Of a stretch of DNA of 64,000 bases, positions 3,314 through 22,636 are shown one piece after another. How positions within the stretch are numbered: the stretch's first letter is position 1; the number at the start of each line of letters is the position of its first letter. This DNA comes from Candidatus Latescibacterota bacterium (GTDB lineage: Bacteria > Latescibacterota > UBA2968 > UBA8231), in NCBI GenBank assembly GCA_965242865.1, contig CBDETK010000013.1, positions 2,592,001 to 2,656,000 of the forward strand. The letters run 5' to 3'. Below the pieces are notes generated by a model. That model did not search any database and was not told the DNA's origin. It saw only the letters and a program-made list of their open reading frames with translations. The position numbers were made by a program, and so were the translations under genes.

Positions 3314-3655
3314 ATGGATTTCAGTAATCCTCTGATCTATATAATTCCCGGACTAGCCATTTTTGGCTATATCGTAAAATGGATTATTAAGGTAGAAAGA
3401 TGGATGGGCAAGATAGACGAGTCTATACGCTTGCTTGAAGAAGGTGCCCGCGAAATGAGGACGGATATTACTTCTATTCAGGTTGTGGAGAAAAACAGCC
3501 CGCTCCGCTTGACGGAAGCGGGGCACTCTATTTCCGAGGCGTTGGATGTTAAGGATCGCCCTGTTGGGTGCTTGGAATCGATGCCGATTTTAATACGTCA
3601 TAAGTCCTTGAAAAACAACGACTTACCCCCCCCCCCCCCGAAAATTCTCCGCTAG
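3314..3655 (+). pseudogene. Small AT-rich membrane-anchored hypothetical protein, apparently truncated and fused into the poly-C leader repeat from 3559
   Basis: RBS GGGAG, N-terminal TM helix then coiled coil; last ~31 codons are repeat sequence shared with 21017-21116. Confidence 0.5.
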
Positions 3656-4217
3656 CACCAAGCACTAAACTCTCTACTTCTCAGCATAGGCCGACAGCTC
3701 GTGTGCGGCCGTTGGGCGTCGCGTCGGTCTGGCCGCGTGGCCCCAAGCGCACGCTGCCGTGCGGCCGTTGGGCTGATCCACGTTTACGGCACCACCCCCG
3801 CAACTCGTCTGCCAAAGACCGAGGGCGGAATCTCCTCGCCCCAGATACCGCGAGAACACTAGCAAAGGCGCACCCAAAGCAAGGGGCGCGTCCTGAGCAC
3901 TCCAAGTTAGGCCCTAGGGCTAGCTCTGCCTCTTTCGGGGCGTCATGCCCCTCTTCCAATCTCCACACCATATCCACACAAAGGAGCAAAACATGCCTTC
4001 GTTGAGATCGATAAAAACCCTGTTTGGATTCGTCCTTTTGGGCATCGTCGGTGCTTGGATGGGCTGCTCAGACTCCGCGCCGGTCGCCTCTCGGCCGGCG
4101 GGCAAAGCCACCTGTTCCTTATGCGAATTCTTGGGCGACGAGACTTACACCGCTGCCGACGGGTTGGCCGCCCCCGAAAGCCCTGACACCACCGAGACCG
4201 AAGCCGAAGCTGACAGT
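3559..4217 (+). repeat. Dispersed leader + lipoprotein N-terminus cassette, copy 1 (palindrome, C14 tract, ~350 nt leader, signal peptide region)
   Basis: Aligns by eye along its length with the reverse complement of ~20430-21116, with scattered substitutions and small indels. Confidence 0.9.
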
Positions 4218-4336
4218 ACATCTGGGCGGACTATGGCACGAGTAAAATTCAGCATGCCGACCTAAATGGATCAAACGTCGCAGACCTCGTCACGGGATTG
4301 AATGTTCCATCGAGCATCGCGCTGGAATTTCGGTAG
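3993..4336 (+). pseudogene. Internally deleted lipoprotein of the LRR/YWTD family (paralog of 18901-20667)
   Basis: RBS AAGGAG, signal ...AWMGC and acidic linker; at ~4220 the frame shifts into one terminal YWTD-type repeat IWADYGTSKIQHADLNGSNVADLVTGLNVPSSIALEFR*. Confidence 0.8.
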
Positions 4337-7338: not shown

Positions 7339-7435
7339 TAGAAGCGTTCACGGTCTAGAAGGGCGGTCGCGGGGGACGCGCCCCTACGTGTCGCAACGTG
7401 CGTATTAAAAACGCATCCGACTTGGGGCTGTCAAA
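7339..7435 (+). repeat. 97-bp direct repeat, left of TA module; contains a GTAG-type REP-like palindrome (7361-7387, minus)
   Basis: Identical to 8009-8105 by direct comparison. Confidence 0.95.
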
Positions 7436-7453: not shown

Positions 7454-7801
7454 TCAACCAATGATGGTTTTGACTATCCGCCGAAGTTGGTCTTGGTCCG
7501 CCGGTTGCAGTTGCCCCAGCTTTTTAATGACCAACCCTTTTTCGATGGTAGTGATCACCGGCTTTACGACCGAAGGTTTGAGCAGTCCGGCTTGCCGCCA
7601 GCCAGCTATCGAGAATTCTCCGAGTGTTTGCATTGATTCAACTCGGCTTGTAACTGCTGCGATGACGACATCTGGTTTGGCAGCGTTATAAGCGGATGTA
7701 CTGATGACCGTTGCCGGGCGTTTTTTATGGCTGGTTTGGTCGGTAAAAGGGAACGGCACCAAGACGAGGTCGCCGAAGCTATAGGTTGTCGTATGCTGCA
7801 T
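7454..7801 (-). CDS. PemK/MazF-family toxin (type II TA)
   Basis: GDLVLVPFPFTD..KKRPA motif, 115 aa, overlaps the upstream small gene. Confidence 0.85.
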   Translation of the reverse strand: MQHTTTYSFGDLVLVPFPFTDQTSHKKRPATVISTSAYNAAKPDVVIAAVTSRVESMQTLGEFSIAGWRQAGLLKPSVVKPVITTIEKGLVIKKLGQLQPADQDQLRRIVKTIIG

Positions 7802-7997
7802 CCTCTGAATTGTCCCAGACTCGATTAAAGCTAGCCTCAGCGGTCCTTAATGCAGCCTGAGTTAGTTCCCGCTCCTGATCTTTGTGGTAGAGGAAATCGA
7901 TGAAATCCTCAACCGTGGCAAGGCGTTCCGGCGGCAGTAATTGGAGTTTGTGAAGCACCTGTTGAATGAGTGCTTGTTGGTCCCTAGGTGAAATCAT
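7779..7997 (-). CDS. Putative antitoxin (DUF2281-like)
   Basis: Small ORF directly upstream of the toxin; LPPERL..VEDFIDFL and acidic tail VWDNSEDAAYDNL. Confidence 0.7.
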   Translation of the reverse strand: MISPRDQQALIQQVLHKLQLLPPERLATVEDFIDFLYHKDQERELTQAALRTAEASFNRVWDNSEDAAYDNL

Positions 7998-8008
7998 CGC
8001 AATTCCCT

Positions 8009-8105
8009 TAGAAGCGTTCACGGTCTAGAAGGGCGGTCGCGGGGGACGCGCCCCTACGTGTCGCAACGTGCGTATTAAAAACGCATCCGACTTGGGGCTG
8101 TCAAA
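8009..8105 (+). repeat. 97-bp direct repeat, right of TA module; REP-like palindrome at 8031-8057
   Basis: Identical to 7339-7435. Confidence 0.95.
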
Positions 8106-18900: not shown

Positions 18901-20667
18901 CTACCAAACACCCAGCGCGAGGTACTTTGGAAACATCAACCCCCTAAGGAGGACTCGGGGATTTGAGCCATCCAAGTTGGCGCTCCCCACGTCACCCGGG
19001 ACCTGGTTCACAAAGGTACTCCCGTTCTGGTCCACCCAGTATATCTTTTCGCGCTCCGCATCCACCGCGATGCCCCATAGCTGCGTCACCCCCGCGGGGG
19101 TGACGACTTCGGCGTCTGAGCCATCCCCATCCAAGTCGGCCCGCTGAAGTCTAGTGCCCGTGGCCATGGTCCAGCTCACCCAGTATATCTTTCTGTTCAC
19201 CAAATCCAGCGCGACGCCCGATGCATTATTCGTGTTCGTGTTCGCAAGGAAGTCTTGGCGGTTTGAGCCATCCAAGTCGGCAGACTCAATCTTATTCAAA
19301 ACCCAGTCCGTCCAGTATATCTTTCCGCGCTCCGCATCCACCGCGATGCCCGTTGGAGTATTCAATGTCGAGGTGATGATGTCTGTGGGGGCTGGCGGGT
19401 CATCCAAGTTGGCAGACCCAATAGCGCCGGGGTTCTGGTCCGTCCAGTATATCTTTCTGTTCACCAAATCCAGCGCGACGCCCTGTGGCGAACCCAGGTT
19501 CGAGGCGATTCTTAGCGTGTCTGAGCCATCCAAGTTGGAACGCCGAATCGAACCGGCTGCCATCGCGTCCGCCCAGTATATCTTTCTGTTCGCCACATCC
19601 ACCGCGATGCCATTTGGATTACTTCCGTCGAGGTATCTTGGGATCCGACCATCGGATCGTACATGACCAAAATGAACTCGTGGCAAGGGGATGAAGGATC
19701 GGGCGACTGAGCCATCCAAGCTGACACGCCAAATCTTTGACCGTCTTTCTGTTCGGGGCGAATTTCTGTCACCGTCCGTCACGTATAGGGCGGGCCCTAC
19801 TGCTCCCTGCCCTTCATCCGGTTCTTCTGGATAGACCTGGACGGTTTCGACGCGGGGGTATTTTTCTAGTACCGCTTCGACGCGGAGGCCGCTTGTTATC
19901 GCGGCGGCGAGTTGTTGGTTGGCCGCGTGCTGGCTAAGGGCGTTTTCCATCACGCCCAGCCATTGCAGGTTGGTCAGGCTGGCCAACGGACTCACGTCCG
20001 CAATGTCGTTGTCACCTAGATTGAGAAATTGCAGATTGGTTAGGCCAGCGAACGGCTGTACATCCGTAATTTCGTTGCCCCACATATCCAGCGTGCGCAA
20101 GCTGATCAGGCTGGCCAGCGGACTCGCATCCGCCACCTTGTTGCCCCACAGCGACAACGTTTGAAGGTTGGTCAGGCTGGCCAACGGCTGCACATCGGTA
20201 ATCGCGTTGCCCCGCAGATACAGCGTTGTCAGGGCCGTTGCGTGTTCAAGGCCGGCCACGCTCTCAATGTTTTTATAGCTCGCGTCAAGTTCGGTTAGGG
20301 CCGCCAAGTCCGCCGGGGTCAGTGCTCCTTGCGGGCGATCCAGTGCCTCCCGCACCGCTCGCTCCAAATTGGCGTCGGCGAACTCCACGATGGCCGATTG
20401 GGTGCTGTCGGCGTCAGCGTCGGTCTGGGTGCTATCGGCGTCGGCGTCGGCGTCGGCGTCGGTTTGGGTGGTGTCGGGGCTTTCCCGGGCGGGCAGCCCG
20501 TCGGTAGCGGTGTAGGCGTCGTCGCCCAAGAACTCGCACAAGGAACAAGTGGCTTTGCCGGCTGGCCGAGAAGCCACCGGCGCGGAGTCTGAGCAGCCCA
20601 TCCAAGCAGCGACGATGCCCAAAAGGACGAGCGCAAACAGGGTTTTGAGAGATTTCAACGAAGTCAT
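18901..20667 (-). CDS. Lipoprotein with internalin-like LRRs and LDL-receptor class B (YWTD) repeats
   Basis: RBS AAGGAG; signal ...AWMGC; DADADAD linker; LRRs (LASLTNLQ.L.L..N.I.DV.P); five KIYW(T/A/V) repeats with ADLDGS/ANLDGS. Confidence 0.88.
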   Translation of the reverse strand: MTSLKSLKTLFALVLLGIVAAWMGCSDSAPVASRPAGKATCSLCEFLGDDAYTATDGLPARESPDTTQTDADADADADSTQTDADADSTQSAIVEFADANLERAVREALDRPQGALTPADLAALTELDASYKNIESVAGLEHATALTTLYLRGNAITDVQPLASLTNLQTLSLWGNKVADASPLASLISLRTLDMWGNEITDVQPFAGLTNLQFLNLGDNDIADVSPLASLTNLQWLGVMENALSQHAANQQLAAAITSGLRVEAVLEKYPRVETVQVYPEEPDEGQGAVGPALYVTDGDRNSPRTERRSKIWRVSLDGSVARSFIPLPRVHFGHVRSDGRIPRYLDGSNPNGIAVDVANRKIYWADAMAAGSIRRSNLDGSDTLRIASNLGSPQGVALDLVNRKIYWTDQNPGAIGSANLDDPPAPTDIITSTLNTPTGIAVDAERGKIYWTDWVLNKIESADLDGSNRQDFLANTNTNNASGVALDLVNRKIYWVSWTMATGTRLQRADLDGDGSDAEVVTPAGVTQLWGIAVDAEREKIYWVDQNGSTFVNQVPGDVGSANLDGSNPRVLLRGLMFPKYLALGVW

Positions 20668-21116
20668 TTTTTGCTCCTTTATATGGTTGGGGAAGAAATG
20701 GTATGGAGGTTGGAAGAGGGGCATGACGCCCCAAAAGAGGCGGAGTTAGCCCTAGGGCTATCACTTGGAGCGCTCAGGATGTGCGCCCCTTGCTGTGGGT
20801 GCGCCTTTGCTGGTGTTCTGGCGGCGTCCGGGGCGAGGAGATTCCGCCCTCGGTCCTTGGCAGACGGGTTGCGGGGGTGGTGCAGTAAACGGGGATCTGC
20901 ATAAAGGCCGCACGGTGGCGTACGCTTGGGATCGTGCGGCCAGACCGACGCGACGCCCAATGGCCGCGCACGAGCCGTCGGCCGATGCTGAGAAGTAGAG
21001 AGTGTAGTGCTTGGTGCTAGCGGAGAATTTTCGGGGGGGGGGGGGGGGGTAAGTCGTTGTTTTTCAAGGACTTACGACACATTAAATCCGACGACGATTC
21101 CAAGCACTCAACAGGG
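20430..21116 (-). repeat. Dispersed leader + lipoprotein N-terminus cassette, copy 2 (C17 tract; G17 at 21033-21049 on +)
   Basis: Inverted homolog of 3559-4217. Confidence 0.9.
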
Positions 21117-21221
21117 TTTTGCCCCATAGCAAGGCCCCTGCCTGATATGAAATGCTTAACCATCGTCTCGTTCATCTCTCGTTCATCCGCCAACCAATGG
21201 TGCCAAATTTGCCGCTGTAAC

Positions 21222-21282
21222 GGGCAGGCACGGGGGCCTGCCCCAACGGGATTCTTACGGGCAGGCACGGGGGGCCGCCCCT
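21222..21282 (-). repeat. Two tandem REP-like palindromes (GTTGGGGCAGGCCCCCGTGCCTGCCC and a variant)
   Basis: GGGCAGGC..GCCTGCCC stems at 21222-21247 and 21259-21282; resemble GTAG-family REPs. Confidence 0.6.
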
Positions 21283-21434
21283 GATTGTAGGTTCTTTGCC
21301 GTCGTCAAATAAAAGCCTAAACACAGAAGCCGCAACCGAATCACACAAAAAAATATAGTGTTCAGACAGCCAAAAGAAAAGTTCCGCCGAGCCATGTTCG
21401 ACGGAGCCTGTGCTGCAAGGGATATAGACGCTCC

Positions 21435-21755
21435 TCAGGTGCCCGGGGGCCGGTAGGGCACGCTTTTCCCGATGGCCTCGTCTATGGTTTCCGGGGCGAC
21501 CAGTACGGTAACGCTAATGTCGAGTGCGCCCGCGTTGCCGATGACCATGGACACGGCCGCGGCCGTTGCGTCGTCGGGAAGATCGGCAATGATATAGAGG
21601 TCTGGGGTGCCGAAGGCGTAGTACAGCGATTCCACGCTGCCGCCCATTTCCTCAATGGTCTGGGTTAGGGCCGCCCGTCGCCGCGTGCCGCCTTCCTTCA
21701 GCAAACCGGCCAGCCCGGCCTGCGTGTACGTCGCGCGAAACATGTATTTGCTCAT
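21435..21755 (-). CDS. GYD domain protein
   Basis: MSKYMFRATYT..G..GL, MGGSVESLYYAFG..D; RBS AGGAGG. Confidence 0.8.
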   Translation of the reverse strand: MSKYMFRATYTQAGLAGLLKEGGTRRRAALTQTIEEMGGSVESLYYAFGTPDLYIIADLPDDATAAAVSMVIGNAGALDISVTVLVAPETIDEAIGKSVPYRPPGT

Positions 21756-21934
21756 TGGATTTCCTCCTTTTATCCAAGATGGCTTCCAACGTAAGCAGCA
21801 TTGGCACCTCGGTCAAACCGCAACGACGACCTTTTACCGCCGCGGTGAGATTGGGTTGACTTCACTCGGTAGTTTACCATGTTAGCCACTTGCGCGCTTG
21901 GTCAACTATCCGCCCGCCGAACTCGAGAACAGCC

Positions 21935-22636
21935 ATGCCCACGCTGATTGCCTTTGACGCCGACGATACCCTGTGGGAAAACGAGATTTACTTTGAACGG
22001 GTCATAGACCGCTTTAAGCATTTGCTGTCGCCCGATTGCGACCCGGCGTGGACTGAGCGGGAACTATACGAGACCGAAAGGCGCAACTTGTCTCACTTTG
22101 GCTACGGGATCAAAGGCTTCACCTTGTCCATGATAGAGACGGCCCTCGACCTGACGAAGGGAGCGGTAACCGGGCACCAAATCCGCCAGATTTTGGACTA
22201 TGGCAAAGAGATGTTGCAGATGCCCATTGAGCCGCTGCCCCACGTCGAGGAGGTGCTTACCGGCCTGTCCCGCACGCGGCCCCTGATGCTGTTGACCAAG
22301 GGCGACTTACTGGACCAAGAGGCCAAAATCGCCCGCTCCGGCTTGGCCGACTACTTCACTTACATCGAAATCGTCAGCGAAAAAGACGAGGAAACCTACG
22401 CGGCCCTGCTGCAACGCCACGGCATCCGGCCCGCCGACTTTTGCATGGTGGGCAATTCGCTCAAATCGGACATCCTGCCCGTCGTCGCTTTAGGCGGCCG
22501 TGCGGTCTATGTGCCTTGCCACACCACTGGGCCGCACGAACGCGCCGAGCCTTCGGAGGCCGAATGCCAGCAATTCCACCAAATAGCCCACCTAGGCGAA
22601 CTGCCCGGCCTGCTCGCAGAGCGGTTAGAAGCGTGA
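21935..22636 (+). CDS. HAD-family hydrolase
   Basis: FDADDTLW, TKGD, MVGNSLKSD. Confidence 0.88.
   Translation: MPTLIAFDADDTLWENEIYFERVIDRFKHLLSPDCDPAWTERELYETERRNLSHFGYGIKGFTLSMIETALDLTKGAVTGHQIRQILDYGKEMLQMPIEPLPHVEEVLTGLSRTRPLMLLTKGDLLDQEAKIARSGLADYFTYIEIVSEKDEETYAALLQRHGIRPADFCMVGNSLKSDILPVVALGGRAVYVPCHTTGPHERAEPSEAECQQFHQIAHLGELPGLLAERLEA

Follow-up and report, generated by a model that had tools for sequence, protein, structure and literature searches.

We analyzed a 64,000-nucleotide (nt) stretch of DNA, here called the window, from a Candidatus Latescibacterota bacterium (GenBank assembly GCA_965242865.1, contig CBDETK010000013.1, positions 2,592,001 to 2,656,000 of the forward strand), in which two long poly-C tracts lie in leader open reading frames (ORFs) upstream of lipoprotein genes. 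Both tracts are part of a cassette that is found at many loci of this genome and of related ones. The cassette itself, its three-frame layout, and the coincidence of a leader stop codon with the start of the downstream gene are observed: two of the three frames stop 2–9 codons past the tract, and the third runs for ~60–130 codons to the downstream start. The best reading of this layout, and in our judgment a probable one on the sequence evidence, is a slipped-strand switch that acts through translation of the leader ORF, by translational coupling or by anti-termination.

Under this reading, the poly-C tract would be the variable element of a portable, lineage-specific phase-variation cassette made up of a conserved start, ~17–40 unconstrained codons, a K-S-L-K-N-N-x-L block, and the C tract itself, read as prolines. 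Slipped-strand mispairing during replication would change the length of the tract. In the ON frame, the translating ribosome would shield the leader RNA from premature termination, and ribosomes would be delivered to the start of the gene by termination-reinitiation; in the OFF frames, the leader would be left naked and the gene would be silent. Premature termination could be brought about by two routes, either through loading of Rho on the C-rich, G-poor leader RNA or at an intrinsic attenuator, that is, a hairpin with a U/pyrimidine-rich tail.

The two tracts of the window, C14 in copy 1 and C17 in copy 2, are present as described in an earlier sequence-only reading of the window, and no further C run of at least 11 nt was found in it (shuffle expectation, 0.09 matches). 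As assembled, both tracts have a length (n) of 2 mod 3, and the reading frame stops 16 nt past the tract; because n = 14, the leader ORF of copy 1 ends at the TAG listed in Table 1. The short peptides that the sequence-only reading gave for the assembled frame are encoded as written, but the two ORFs are open from ATGs upstream of those that it chose. Its proposal that a tract length divisible by three would open a long frame in both copies was borne out, end points included. In copy 1, the other two post-tract frames stop at TAG 3653–3655 and TAA 3666–3668, and the TGA of the long frame is found 10 nt past the lipoprotein ATG, overlapping codons 4–5 of the gene. In copy 2, the TAA of the long frame stands directly before the Shine-Dalgarno sequence, 11 nt upstream of the ATG. 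The compensating indels that had been noted between the two copies are real.

The sequence-only reading had also taken the downstream gene to be intact, which is true of copy 2 (588 amino acids, aa) but not of copy 1, where only a 90-aa remnant is left. The leader ORF of copy 1 consists of an AT-rich foreign 5′ part (3314–3558) joined in frame to a truncated cassette that begins at 3559; from there to a point beyond 4200, the sequence belongs to a dispersed family. The AT-rich plus-strand segment 3314–3558 is unusual against the 60.6% GC background of the genome, and no Pfam family was found for the ORF that starts at 3314. What is left of the gene agrees with copy 2 over its first 222 nt and in the 3′ flank; the middle part has been lost, and the final YWTD blade is no longer in frame. 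Because the cassette is cut at 3559 and the lipoprotein gene is internally deleted, copy 1 is a decayed family member, and its switch is probably vestigial. Copy 2, in contrast, is an intact example of cassette plus gene. Its leader ORF contains another in-frame ATG at 21163, its long-frame product gave no Pfam match, and its lipoprotein combines a signal peptide with a lipobox cysteine, an acidic linker, leucine-rich repeats (LRRs), and low-density lipoprotein (LDL)-receptor class B (YWTD) repeats.

Table 1. Features of the two cassette loci in the window (positions are those of the window; n is the number of C residues in the tract)
Feature	Position	Strand	Details
Copy 1 poly-C tract (C14)	3626–3639	+	Read as Pro codons
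Copy 1 leader ORF as assembled	3314–3655	+	113 aa; ATG 3314, stop TAG 3653–3655
Copy 1 cassette core, 27 nt	3599–3625	+	Codons H-K-S-L-K-N-N-D-L, directly 5′ of the tract
Copy 1 long leader frame	3640–4005	+	121 codons plus TGA 4003–4005; read only if n = 0 mod 3
Copy 1 Shine-Dalgarno and lipoprotein start	3981–3995	+	AAGGAG 3981–3986; ATG 3993–3995
Copy 1 lipoprotein gene remnant	3993–4265	+	90 aa
Copy 2 poly-C tract (C17)	21033–21049	−	
Copy 2 leader ORF as assembled	21017–21175	−	Conserved ATG 21175, core, C17, TAG ending at 21017
Copy 2 long leader frame	20679–21032	−	117 codons plus TAA 20681–20679; read only if n = 0 mod 3
Copy 2 intact lipoprotein gene	18901–20667	−	588 aa
Tandem GC-rich hairpin repeats, like repetitive extragenic palindromes (REP-like)	21215–21300	−	Upstream of the copy 2 leader ORF

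The leader belongs to a dispersed family of 29 copies in the 6.0-Mb genome, and the lipoprotein family has 30 paralogues, of which 27 are intact (474–686 aa) and three are truncated. A script search located the cassette in front of 28 of the 30 lipoprotein genes, and a 29th gene has a variant of the cassette that differs by 1 nt. The intact paralogues are 80–90% identical in their N-terminal halves and 32–46% identical in their C-terminal halves. In the 28 leader copies other than copy 1, a conserved ATG ~38 codons ahead of the tract begins the leader ORF, which is open throughout; five copies carry +1 and −1 indels upstream of the tract that cancel each other out. The cassette core has the codons (R/H/C)-K-S-L-K-N-N-x-L, followed by Pro(n). 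This 27-nt block is conserved at the nucleotide level, unlike the rest of the leader ORF, and the differences within it, judged by eye, fall mostly on third codon positions, which points to the peptide. At 3608–3616 and 21067–21059, within the core, our genome has TTG AAA AAC; most relatives have TTA AAA AAC and with it an in-frame heptamer, A-AAA-AAC, of the kind known from classical −1 slippery sites. Most cassette copies also carry REP-like hairpin repeats, 2–4 units of ~37 nt, between the upstream gene and the leader ORF.

The comparison of homologues that had been suggested for the long frame was made with 26 aligned copies from this genome. The long frame (frame 0) contains nine stops in total over the 26 copies, whereas the other two forward frames contain 83 and 97 and the reverse frames 56, 88, and 103. 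Frame 1 stops 4 codons and frame 2 stops 8 codons past the tract in nearly all lipoprotein copies. Frame 0 remains open across three types of leader module with unrelated middles, at leader lengths from 263 to 476 nt. It ends at a shared TGA 10 nt past the lipoprotein ATG in 16 of the 26 copies, at a TGA overlapping the ATG (ATGA) in one, and at a TAA directly before the Shine-Dalgarno sequence in three more. We conclude that the long frame is beyond chance across the family, though not at a single locus.

Two other sequence features, a palindrome at 3911–3920 and a hairpin with a pyrimidine-rich tail at 3937–3951, lie inside the long frame of copy 1. The palindrome extends to as much as 18 nt around CCCTAGGG, occupies the equivalent place in other copies, and contains three TAG triplets in one frame. 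Through compensating indels, 25 of 26 copies have these TAGs outside the long frame; the one exception has them in frame 0, but its long frame is frame 2. By its sequence, the palindrome could be a protein-binding site.

The cassette is confined to a narrow group of relatives. Among all genome contigs searched, its pattern was detected only in Candidatus Latescibacterota metagenome-assembled genomes (MAGs), at 40 loci in 10 records. Within the class, the block was present in 12 of 31 genomes of the window's genus (our own included) and in 0 of 101 others; a control search of the class with the backwards pattern gave 0 matches. Public runs that match the window are sponge metagenomes, and scans of metagenome contigs gave 0 matches to the own-type pattern, one locus with the general pattern, and no strain-level orthologues.

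After removal of loci fetched twice, 77 cassette loci were available, 67 of which are not fused to the downstream gene. At 47 of these 67, the longest post-tract frame ends no more than 16 nt from the start of an ORF with 80 aa or more. ATGA overlaps account for 21 of the 47 and ATGN7TGA for 14; in the rest, the stop lies between or beside the Shine-Dalgarno sequence and the start. Control positions displaced by 60–120 nt gave 65 matches in 334 tests. We also defined the gene start without regard to frame, as the first ATG or GTG with a Shine-Dalgarno sequence whose ORF has 100 aa or more, or 60 aa or more where it reaches the end of the locus. By this definition 44 of 61 loci match, and shuffled leaders gave 0.09–0.14 for the two large clusters. 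When each of nine sequence-unrelated leader clusters was counted once, seven matched (Poisson-binomial P = 6e-5). The downstream genes differ between clusters, and those that were read begin with signal-peptide-like N termini. ON/OFF control of a separate downstream gene, as put forward in the sequence-only reading, is partly supported, as a design, by the 47 loci, by the seven unrelated clusters, and by the experimental precedent of pil1, as far as the accessible part of that report describes it (PMC3894217). Another mechanism that was weighed, a programmed −1 frameshift at the A-run preceding the lipoprotein start, would give a leader-lipoprotein fusion; it was dropped because other families use plain ATGA overlaps without a slippery site.

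At the remaining 10 of the 77 cassette loci, which are unrelated to the lipoproteins, the cassette forms an in-frame fusion with a signal peptide and a long ORF, and GGAG plus ATG precede the block. As assembled, five of the fused loci are in frame and five are out of frame. According to Pfam, four of the fused ORFs are Fn3-GSDH-cytochrome c proteins, three are arylsulfotransferase-like, and one has He_PIG domains; for one further fused ORF, no Pfam family was found. Judged by sequence, the fused loci have the classical architecture of intragenic phase variation. Their frame runs through the prolines into signal peptides, which shows the block to be a coding element.

Tract lengths vary widely, from 8 to 25 in the 29 copies of our genome and from 9 to 24 in relatives, all of them at or above the ~8 nt at which a homopolymer can be hypermutable. 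The mean difference in length between pairs of copies is ~4 in every bin of flank identity, pairs that are 92–97% identical included, and orthologous loci in different MAGs also differ (14 versus 12, with flanks 93–96% identical, and 15 versus 12). Tracts occur in MAGs with MEGAHIT-style "k141" contig names as well, which we infer to be short-read assemblies. Sponge-metagenome contigs over 19800–22300 are pieces of ~80–100 nt across the repeated cassette, none of which spans the tract together with unique flanks. In the whole genome, there are 68 C/G runs of at least 9 nt. These include a second class of tract, poly-G on the gene strand 2–3 codons past the ATG, in two families with signal-peptide-like N termini (examples in G000:C13 are 3870535–3870550, 3875003–3875021, 3492055–3492067, 1273848–1273861, 2462705–2462717, and 286111–286120). 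By manual reading, some members of this class are in frame and some are out of frame.

A number of observations, which concern the leader frames, the leader RNA, the tract lengths, and the promoters, weigh against a switch that works through leader translation. To begin with the frames, a single leader has a fully open frame in 5–55% of dinucleotide-preserving shuffles, which is not significant; the caveat that came with the sequence-only reading, namely that GC-rich DNA often has long open frames by chance, was therefore justified for a single locus. One of the 26 aligned copies reaches the shared TGA in another register and needs a different tract class, three read past the ATG in another register, and in two the long frame stops 51 nt short of the ATG. 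Stop-start coincidence is absent from 20 of the 67 non-fused loci. The diversity of the long frame at the three codon positions (0.075/0.122/0.115) is not coding-like, compared with 0.065/0.039/0.152 in the lipoprotein gene, and it is flat in the N-terminal leader as well. Such a pattern would fit a frame that is valued for the act of translation only, but it would fit an untranslated leader equally well; if the frame matters, it is the act of translation that matters and not the product. Stop-creating substitutions in the long frame are not depleted (3 versus 3.5 expected), in a test of low power. A functional leader protein was rejected, given the lack of a Pfam match for the long-frame product and for the upstream ORF of copy 1 and the lack of a coding-like codon pattern.

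Initiation signals raise a further difficulty. By eye, the start of the leader ORF in the lipoprotein family has no clear Shine-Dalgarno sequence, and the downstream genes carry an AAGGAG or GAGGAG of their own. Because these Shine-Dalgarno sequences are strong, coupling alone would not silence the downstream genes, and silencing in the OFF state probably needs premature termination of transcription.

Both routes of termination would be compatible with the sequence data. With respect to Rho, C exceeds G in the leaders of 14 of 17 representatives (C/G 1.16–1.69, versus a genome median of 1.00). In the same 14, the first 60 nt past the tract are G-poor (G 0.10–0.18, versus 0.20–0.22 in the other three). 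A rho gene is present, with a score of 672.8 bits, above the cut-off. With respect to intrinsic attenuation, 29 of 62 loci have a hairpin with a T/pyrimidine-rich tail within the final 110 nt of their long frame, compared with 6.6 expected. Terminator-like hairpins are clear in the families of two other species, and a consensus tool flags one locus (L049); in our own family the hairpin at 3937–3951 has a weak T tail, and the tool detects no terminator inside the leader. The RNA as a whole shows no extra stability (leader minimum free energy −114.1 kcal/mol, z = −0.26 versus shuffles), which is another of the points on the negative side. RNAalifold on 17 copies gave four pairs with changes on both sides and breaks in 21 of 83 pairs. 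On the strength of this z value and of these breaks, a specially structured leader RNA was rejected as lacking support; a search for Rfam families gave no match in the window. A role in the switch for ribosome stalling on poly-proline and for elongation factor P (EF-P), which the sequence-only reading had brought up, is speculation.

As for the tracts, their lengths were taken from assemblies, in which long homopolymers are error-prone. The 29 own copies are unevenly distributed over the three classes (five are 0, seven are 1, and 17 are 2 mod 3), so that n = 2 mod 3 is over-represented, with lengths 8, 14, 17, and 20 recurring, and eight of the 29 tracts are broken by T or A. The 2 mod 3 class matches the coding frame of the in-frame fused loci. 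Only three of the 26 aligned own copies combine n = 0 mod 3 with a long frame that ends at the start region, and loci of the upstream ORF (uORF) type are, as assembled, ON in 11 cases and off in 36. The three loci of our genome that were assembled in the ON frame lie near 891,650, 1,175,581, and 5,089,450 of C13. Homopolymers are known to promote both transcriptional and translational slippage. RNA polymerase or the ribosome might slip on C13–20 and produce a mixture of frames and a fixed low level of expression, that is, a rheostat without heritable switching. The great length of the tracts (up to C20–C25) and the fact that ON lengths are not favored at uORF-type loci would suit such a device, which the frame architecture would serve equally well. 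We nevertheless consider it unlikely, since tract lengths vary freely between paralogues and orthologues, as expected of instability at the DNA level, and since the even split of the fused loci between in-frame and out-of-frame states is that of classical contingency genes.

The same length distribution bears on another explanation, in which the leaders are relics: an ancestral in-frame fusion would have been split later by an inserted leader, the tract and its frames would be leftovers, and the genes would now use their own signals. In-frame fusions do exist, most copies (17, n = 2 mod 3) have an assembled frame that matches ..P-K-I-(L)-R, the ancestral coding frame under this view, and the interrupted tracts, the undepleted stop-creating substitutions, the non-significance of any single open frame, and the plain decay of copy 1 would all agree with it. 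What speaks against a relic is that the frame and its end point have been kept across different leader modules, lengths, and combinations of indels, and that other species show the same design with leaders and genes that are unrelated. Moreover, a useless tract would be expected to decay, yet pure long tracts (C13–C20) persist in 21 of the 29 copies. On balance, we regard this explanation as improbable.

The promoter evidence is likewise unfavorable to the switch. A scan for sigma-70-type promoters found none around copy 2 on either strand; around copy 1 it found two sense matches, upstream of the start of the foreign ORF, and three antisense matches, but none in the leader on the sense strand. 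Inspection by eye together with the scan revealed nothing conserved among sigma-54 or sigma-70 elements upstream of the leader. These results also bear on the possibility that the tract is a transcriptional switch, located in or near a promoter or operator, or a target in the RNA of the 5′ untranslated region (UTR), with the frames being irrelevant. Conservation of the 27-nt block at the nucleotide level across the genus, next to an otherwise unconstrained leader, would suit a binding site, and variable G-repeats in mRNA leaders that are targeted by small RNAs (sRNAs) are on record, as far as the accessible parts of the sources go (PMC8295292, PMC12721329). Yet there is no sigma-70-like promoter at the copy 2 tract and only a minus-strand match near the copy 1 tract; on the sense strand, neither tract has a sigma-70-type match running across it, although the promoter consensus of the phylum may differ. 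The third-position differences in the block point to a peptide, and a switch of this kind would leave unexplained the two immediate stops, the stop-start overlaps in seven of nine clusters, and the in-frame fusions. A transcriptional switch therefore has little probability in our view, and we retain the slipped-strand switch acting through the leader ORF as the best reading.

The closest known system, as far as it is described in the accessible part of the report, is the leader-peptide repeat switch of Streptococcus gallolyticus pil1 (Danne et al. 2014, PMC3894217). In pil1/pil3, GCAGA repeats in a leader-peptide gene alter the length of the peptide, and the long forms of pil1 carry the ribosome into a premature terminator and thereby raise transcription (PMC3894217). 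Common to pil1 and to the cassette is a hypermutable repeat in a leader ORF that lies ahead of genes for surface structures and is distinct from them; in both, the long form would take the ribosome across a downstream element and turn expression on, which for the cassette is read from sequence. The repeats themselves differ, a C8–C25 homopolymer here and a GCAGA pentamer in pil1. Here one of three frames is long, whereas in pil1 out-of-frame changes give the long forms; the long frame of the cassette runs for 60–130 codons to a stop that overlaps the start (ATGA), whereas that of pil1 reaches a defined terminator and stops within or immediately past it. Among our leader families, only some show a clear terminator-like hairpin with a T-run, and in the family of the window it is weak. 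Furthermore, the cassette is reusable, occurs at dozens of loci per genome, and is also found as an in-frame N-terminal fusion, and its host is an uncultured sponge symbiont, which is known from sequence alone.

Classical intragenic phase variation through homopolymers is exemplified by Neisseria hpuA, hmbR, pilC, and siaD, and the Opa genes carry CTCTT repeats in the signal-peptide region. The cassette resembles these systems in having poly-C or poly-G close to the 5′ end of genes whose products are secreted or lie at the surface; in both, members of a multigene family would switch independently, and premature termination may add polarity. The 10 fused loci are exactly of the intragenic kind. 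At the lipoprotein loci, in contrast, the tract is outside the gene, which is intact in every tract state (27 of 30 ORFs are intact), and the mature lipoproteins carry no residues encoded by the repeat.

In attenuation of the pyrBI type, translation of a leader decides whether transcription proceeds into the structural gene. Examples of attenuation that depends on a uORF and Rho include mgtA, corA, and topAI-toiL, and in the accessible part of a review on Rho, invertible DNA switches (fim, flgB) are the only cases of phase variation listed as acting through this factor (PMC12360218). Here too, leader translation would decide how far transcription reaches, the leader is rich in C and poor in G, and the genome has a rho gene. 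The known systems, however, sense metabolites, ions, or ribosome stalling, whereas the input here would be a heritable change of frame. Repeats in promoters or 5′ UTRs act as switches in Bordetella fim, Neisseria opc, porA, and nadA, Haemophilus influenzae hmw, and the G-repeat of Helicobacter pylori tlpB. Like the cassette, they would modulate expression from a position upstream of an intact gene; unlike it, they act through promoter spacing, repressor sites, or RNA processing, whereas what is conserved here is the architecture of the frames.

Most known cases of phase variation through simple repeats come from host-adapted pathogens whose genomes are small, where the repeat is nearly always inside a gene or a promoter. 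In sponge symbionts, eukaryote-like repeat proteins are thought to mediate contact with host cells. Full-text literature searches found no paper on phase variation in Latescibacteria or in sponge symbionts. For sponge Latescibacterota, LRR, NHL, and other eukaryote-like domains have been reported, and the word "homopolymer" is absent from the accessible part of that paper (PMC12993501).

Other repeats were observed in the window. Perfect 97-nt direct repeats (7339–7435 and 8009–8105) flank two small, overlapping ORFs on the minus strand, 7454–7801 (115 aa) and 7779–8021 (80 aa), which look toxin-antitoxin-like by eye and are candidates only. Between 51775 and 54725, there are eleven tandem copies of a 261-nt unit (87 aa) that are 67–82% alike; they are presumably the repeat-domain region of a very large gene. 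Two pairs of direct repeats, 37968–38267/40289–40588 (99% identical) and 35671–35762/40198–40289 (95%), lie a few kb apart and are possibly duplicated genes or a mobile element.

Taken by its sequence, the system looks like independent stochastic switching of a variable family of surface proteins in a sponge symbiont. A wider interpretation, which we offer tentatively and hold to be doubtful as a whole, is that of a portable contingency cassette, conserved in its nucleotides and made up of the leader start, the K-S-L-K-N-N-x-L block, the poly-C tract, and two built-in stops, that would have been spread by recombination within one genus of sponge symbionts. It would be usable either fused in frame to a signal peptide or as a uORF coupled to any gene, and whole families of eukaryote-like surface proteins would come under independent stochastic control, much as in antigenic variation but in an animal symbiont that is not a pathogen. 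As part of this interpretation, the conserved nascent peptide and the polyproline might tune the switch as an arrest or slippage element built into it. If the switch is real, a single leader-ORF module would control ~30 LRR/YWTD lipoprotein paralogues, along with other secreted families, and leave the proteins themselves untouched. The leader-peptide type of switch known from pil1 would then extend to homopolymers, to translational coupling, and to a new phylum, and the cassette would represent a compact, transplantable design for a genetic switch. For the biology of the organism, stochastic variation of the cell surface would be part of a mutualistic or commensal symbiosis with an animal.

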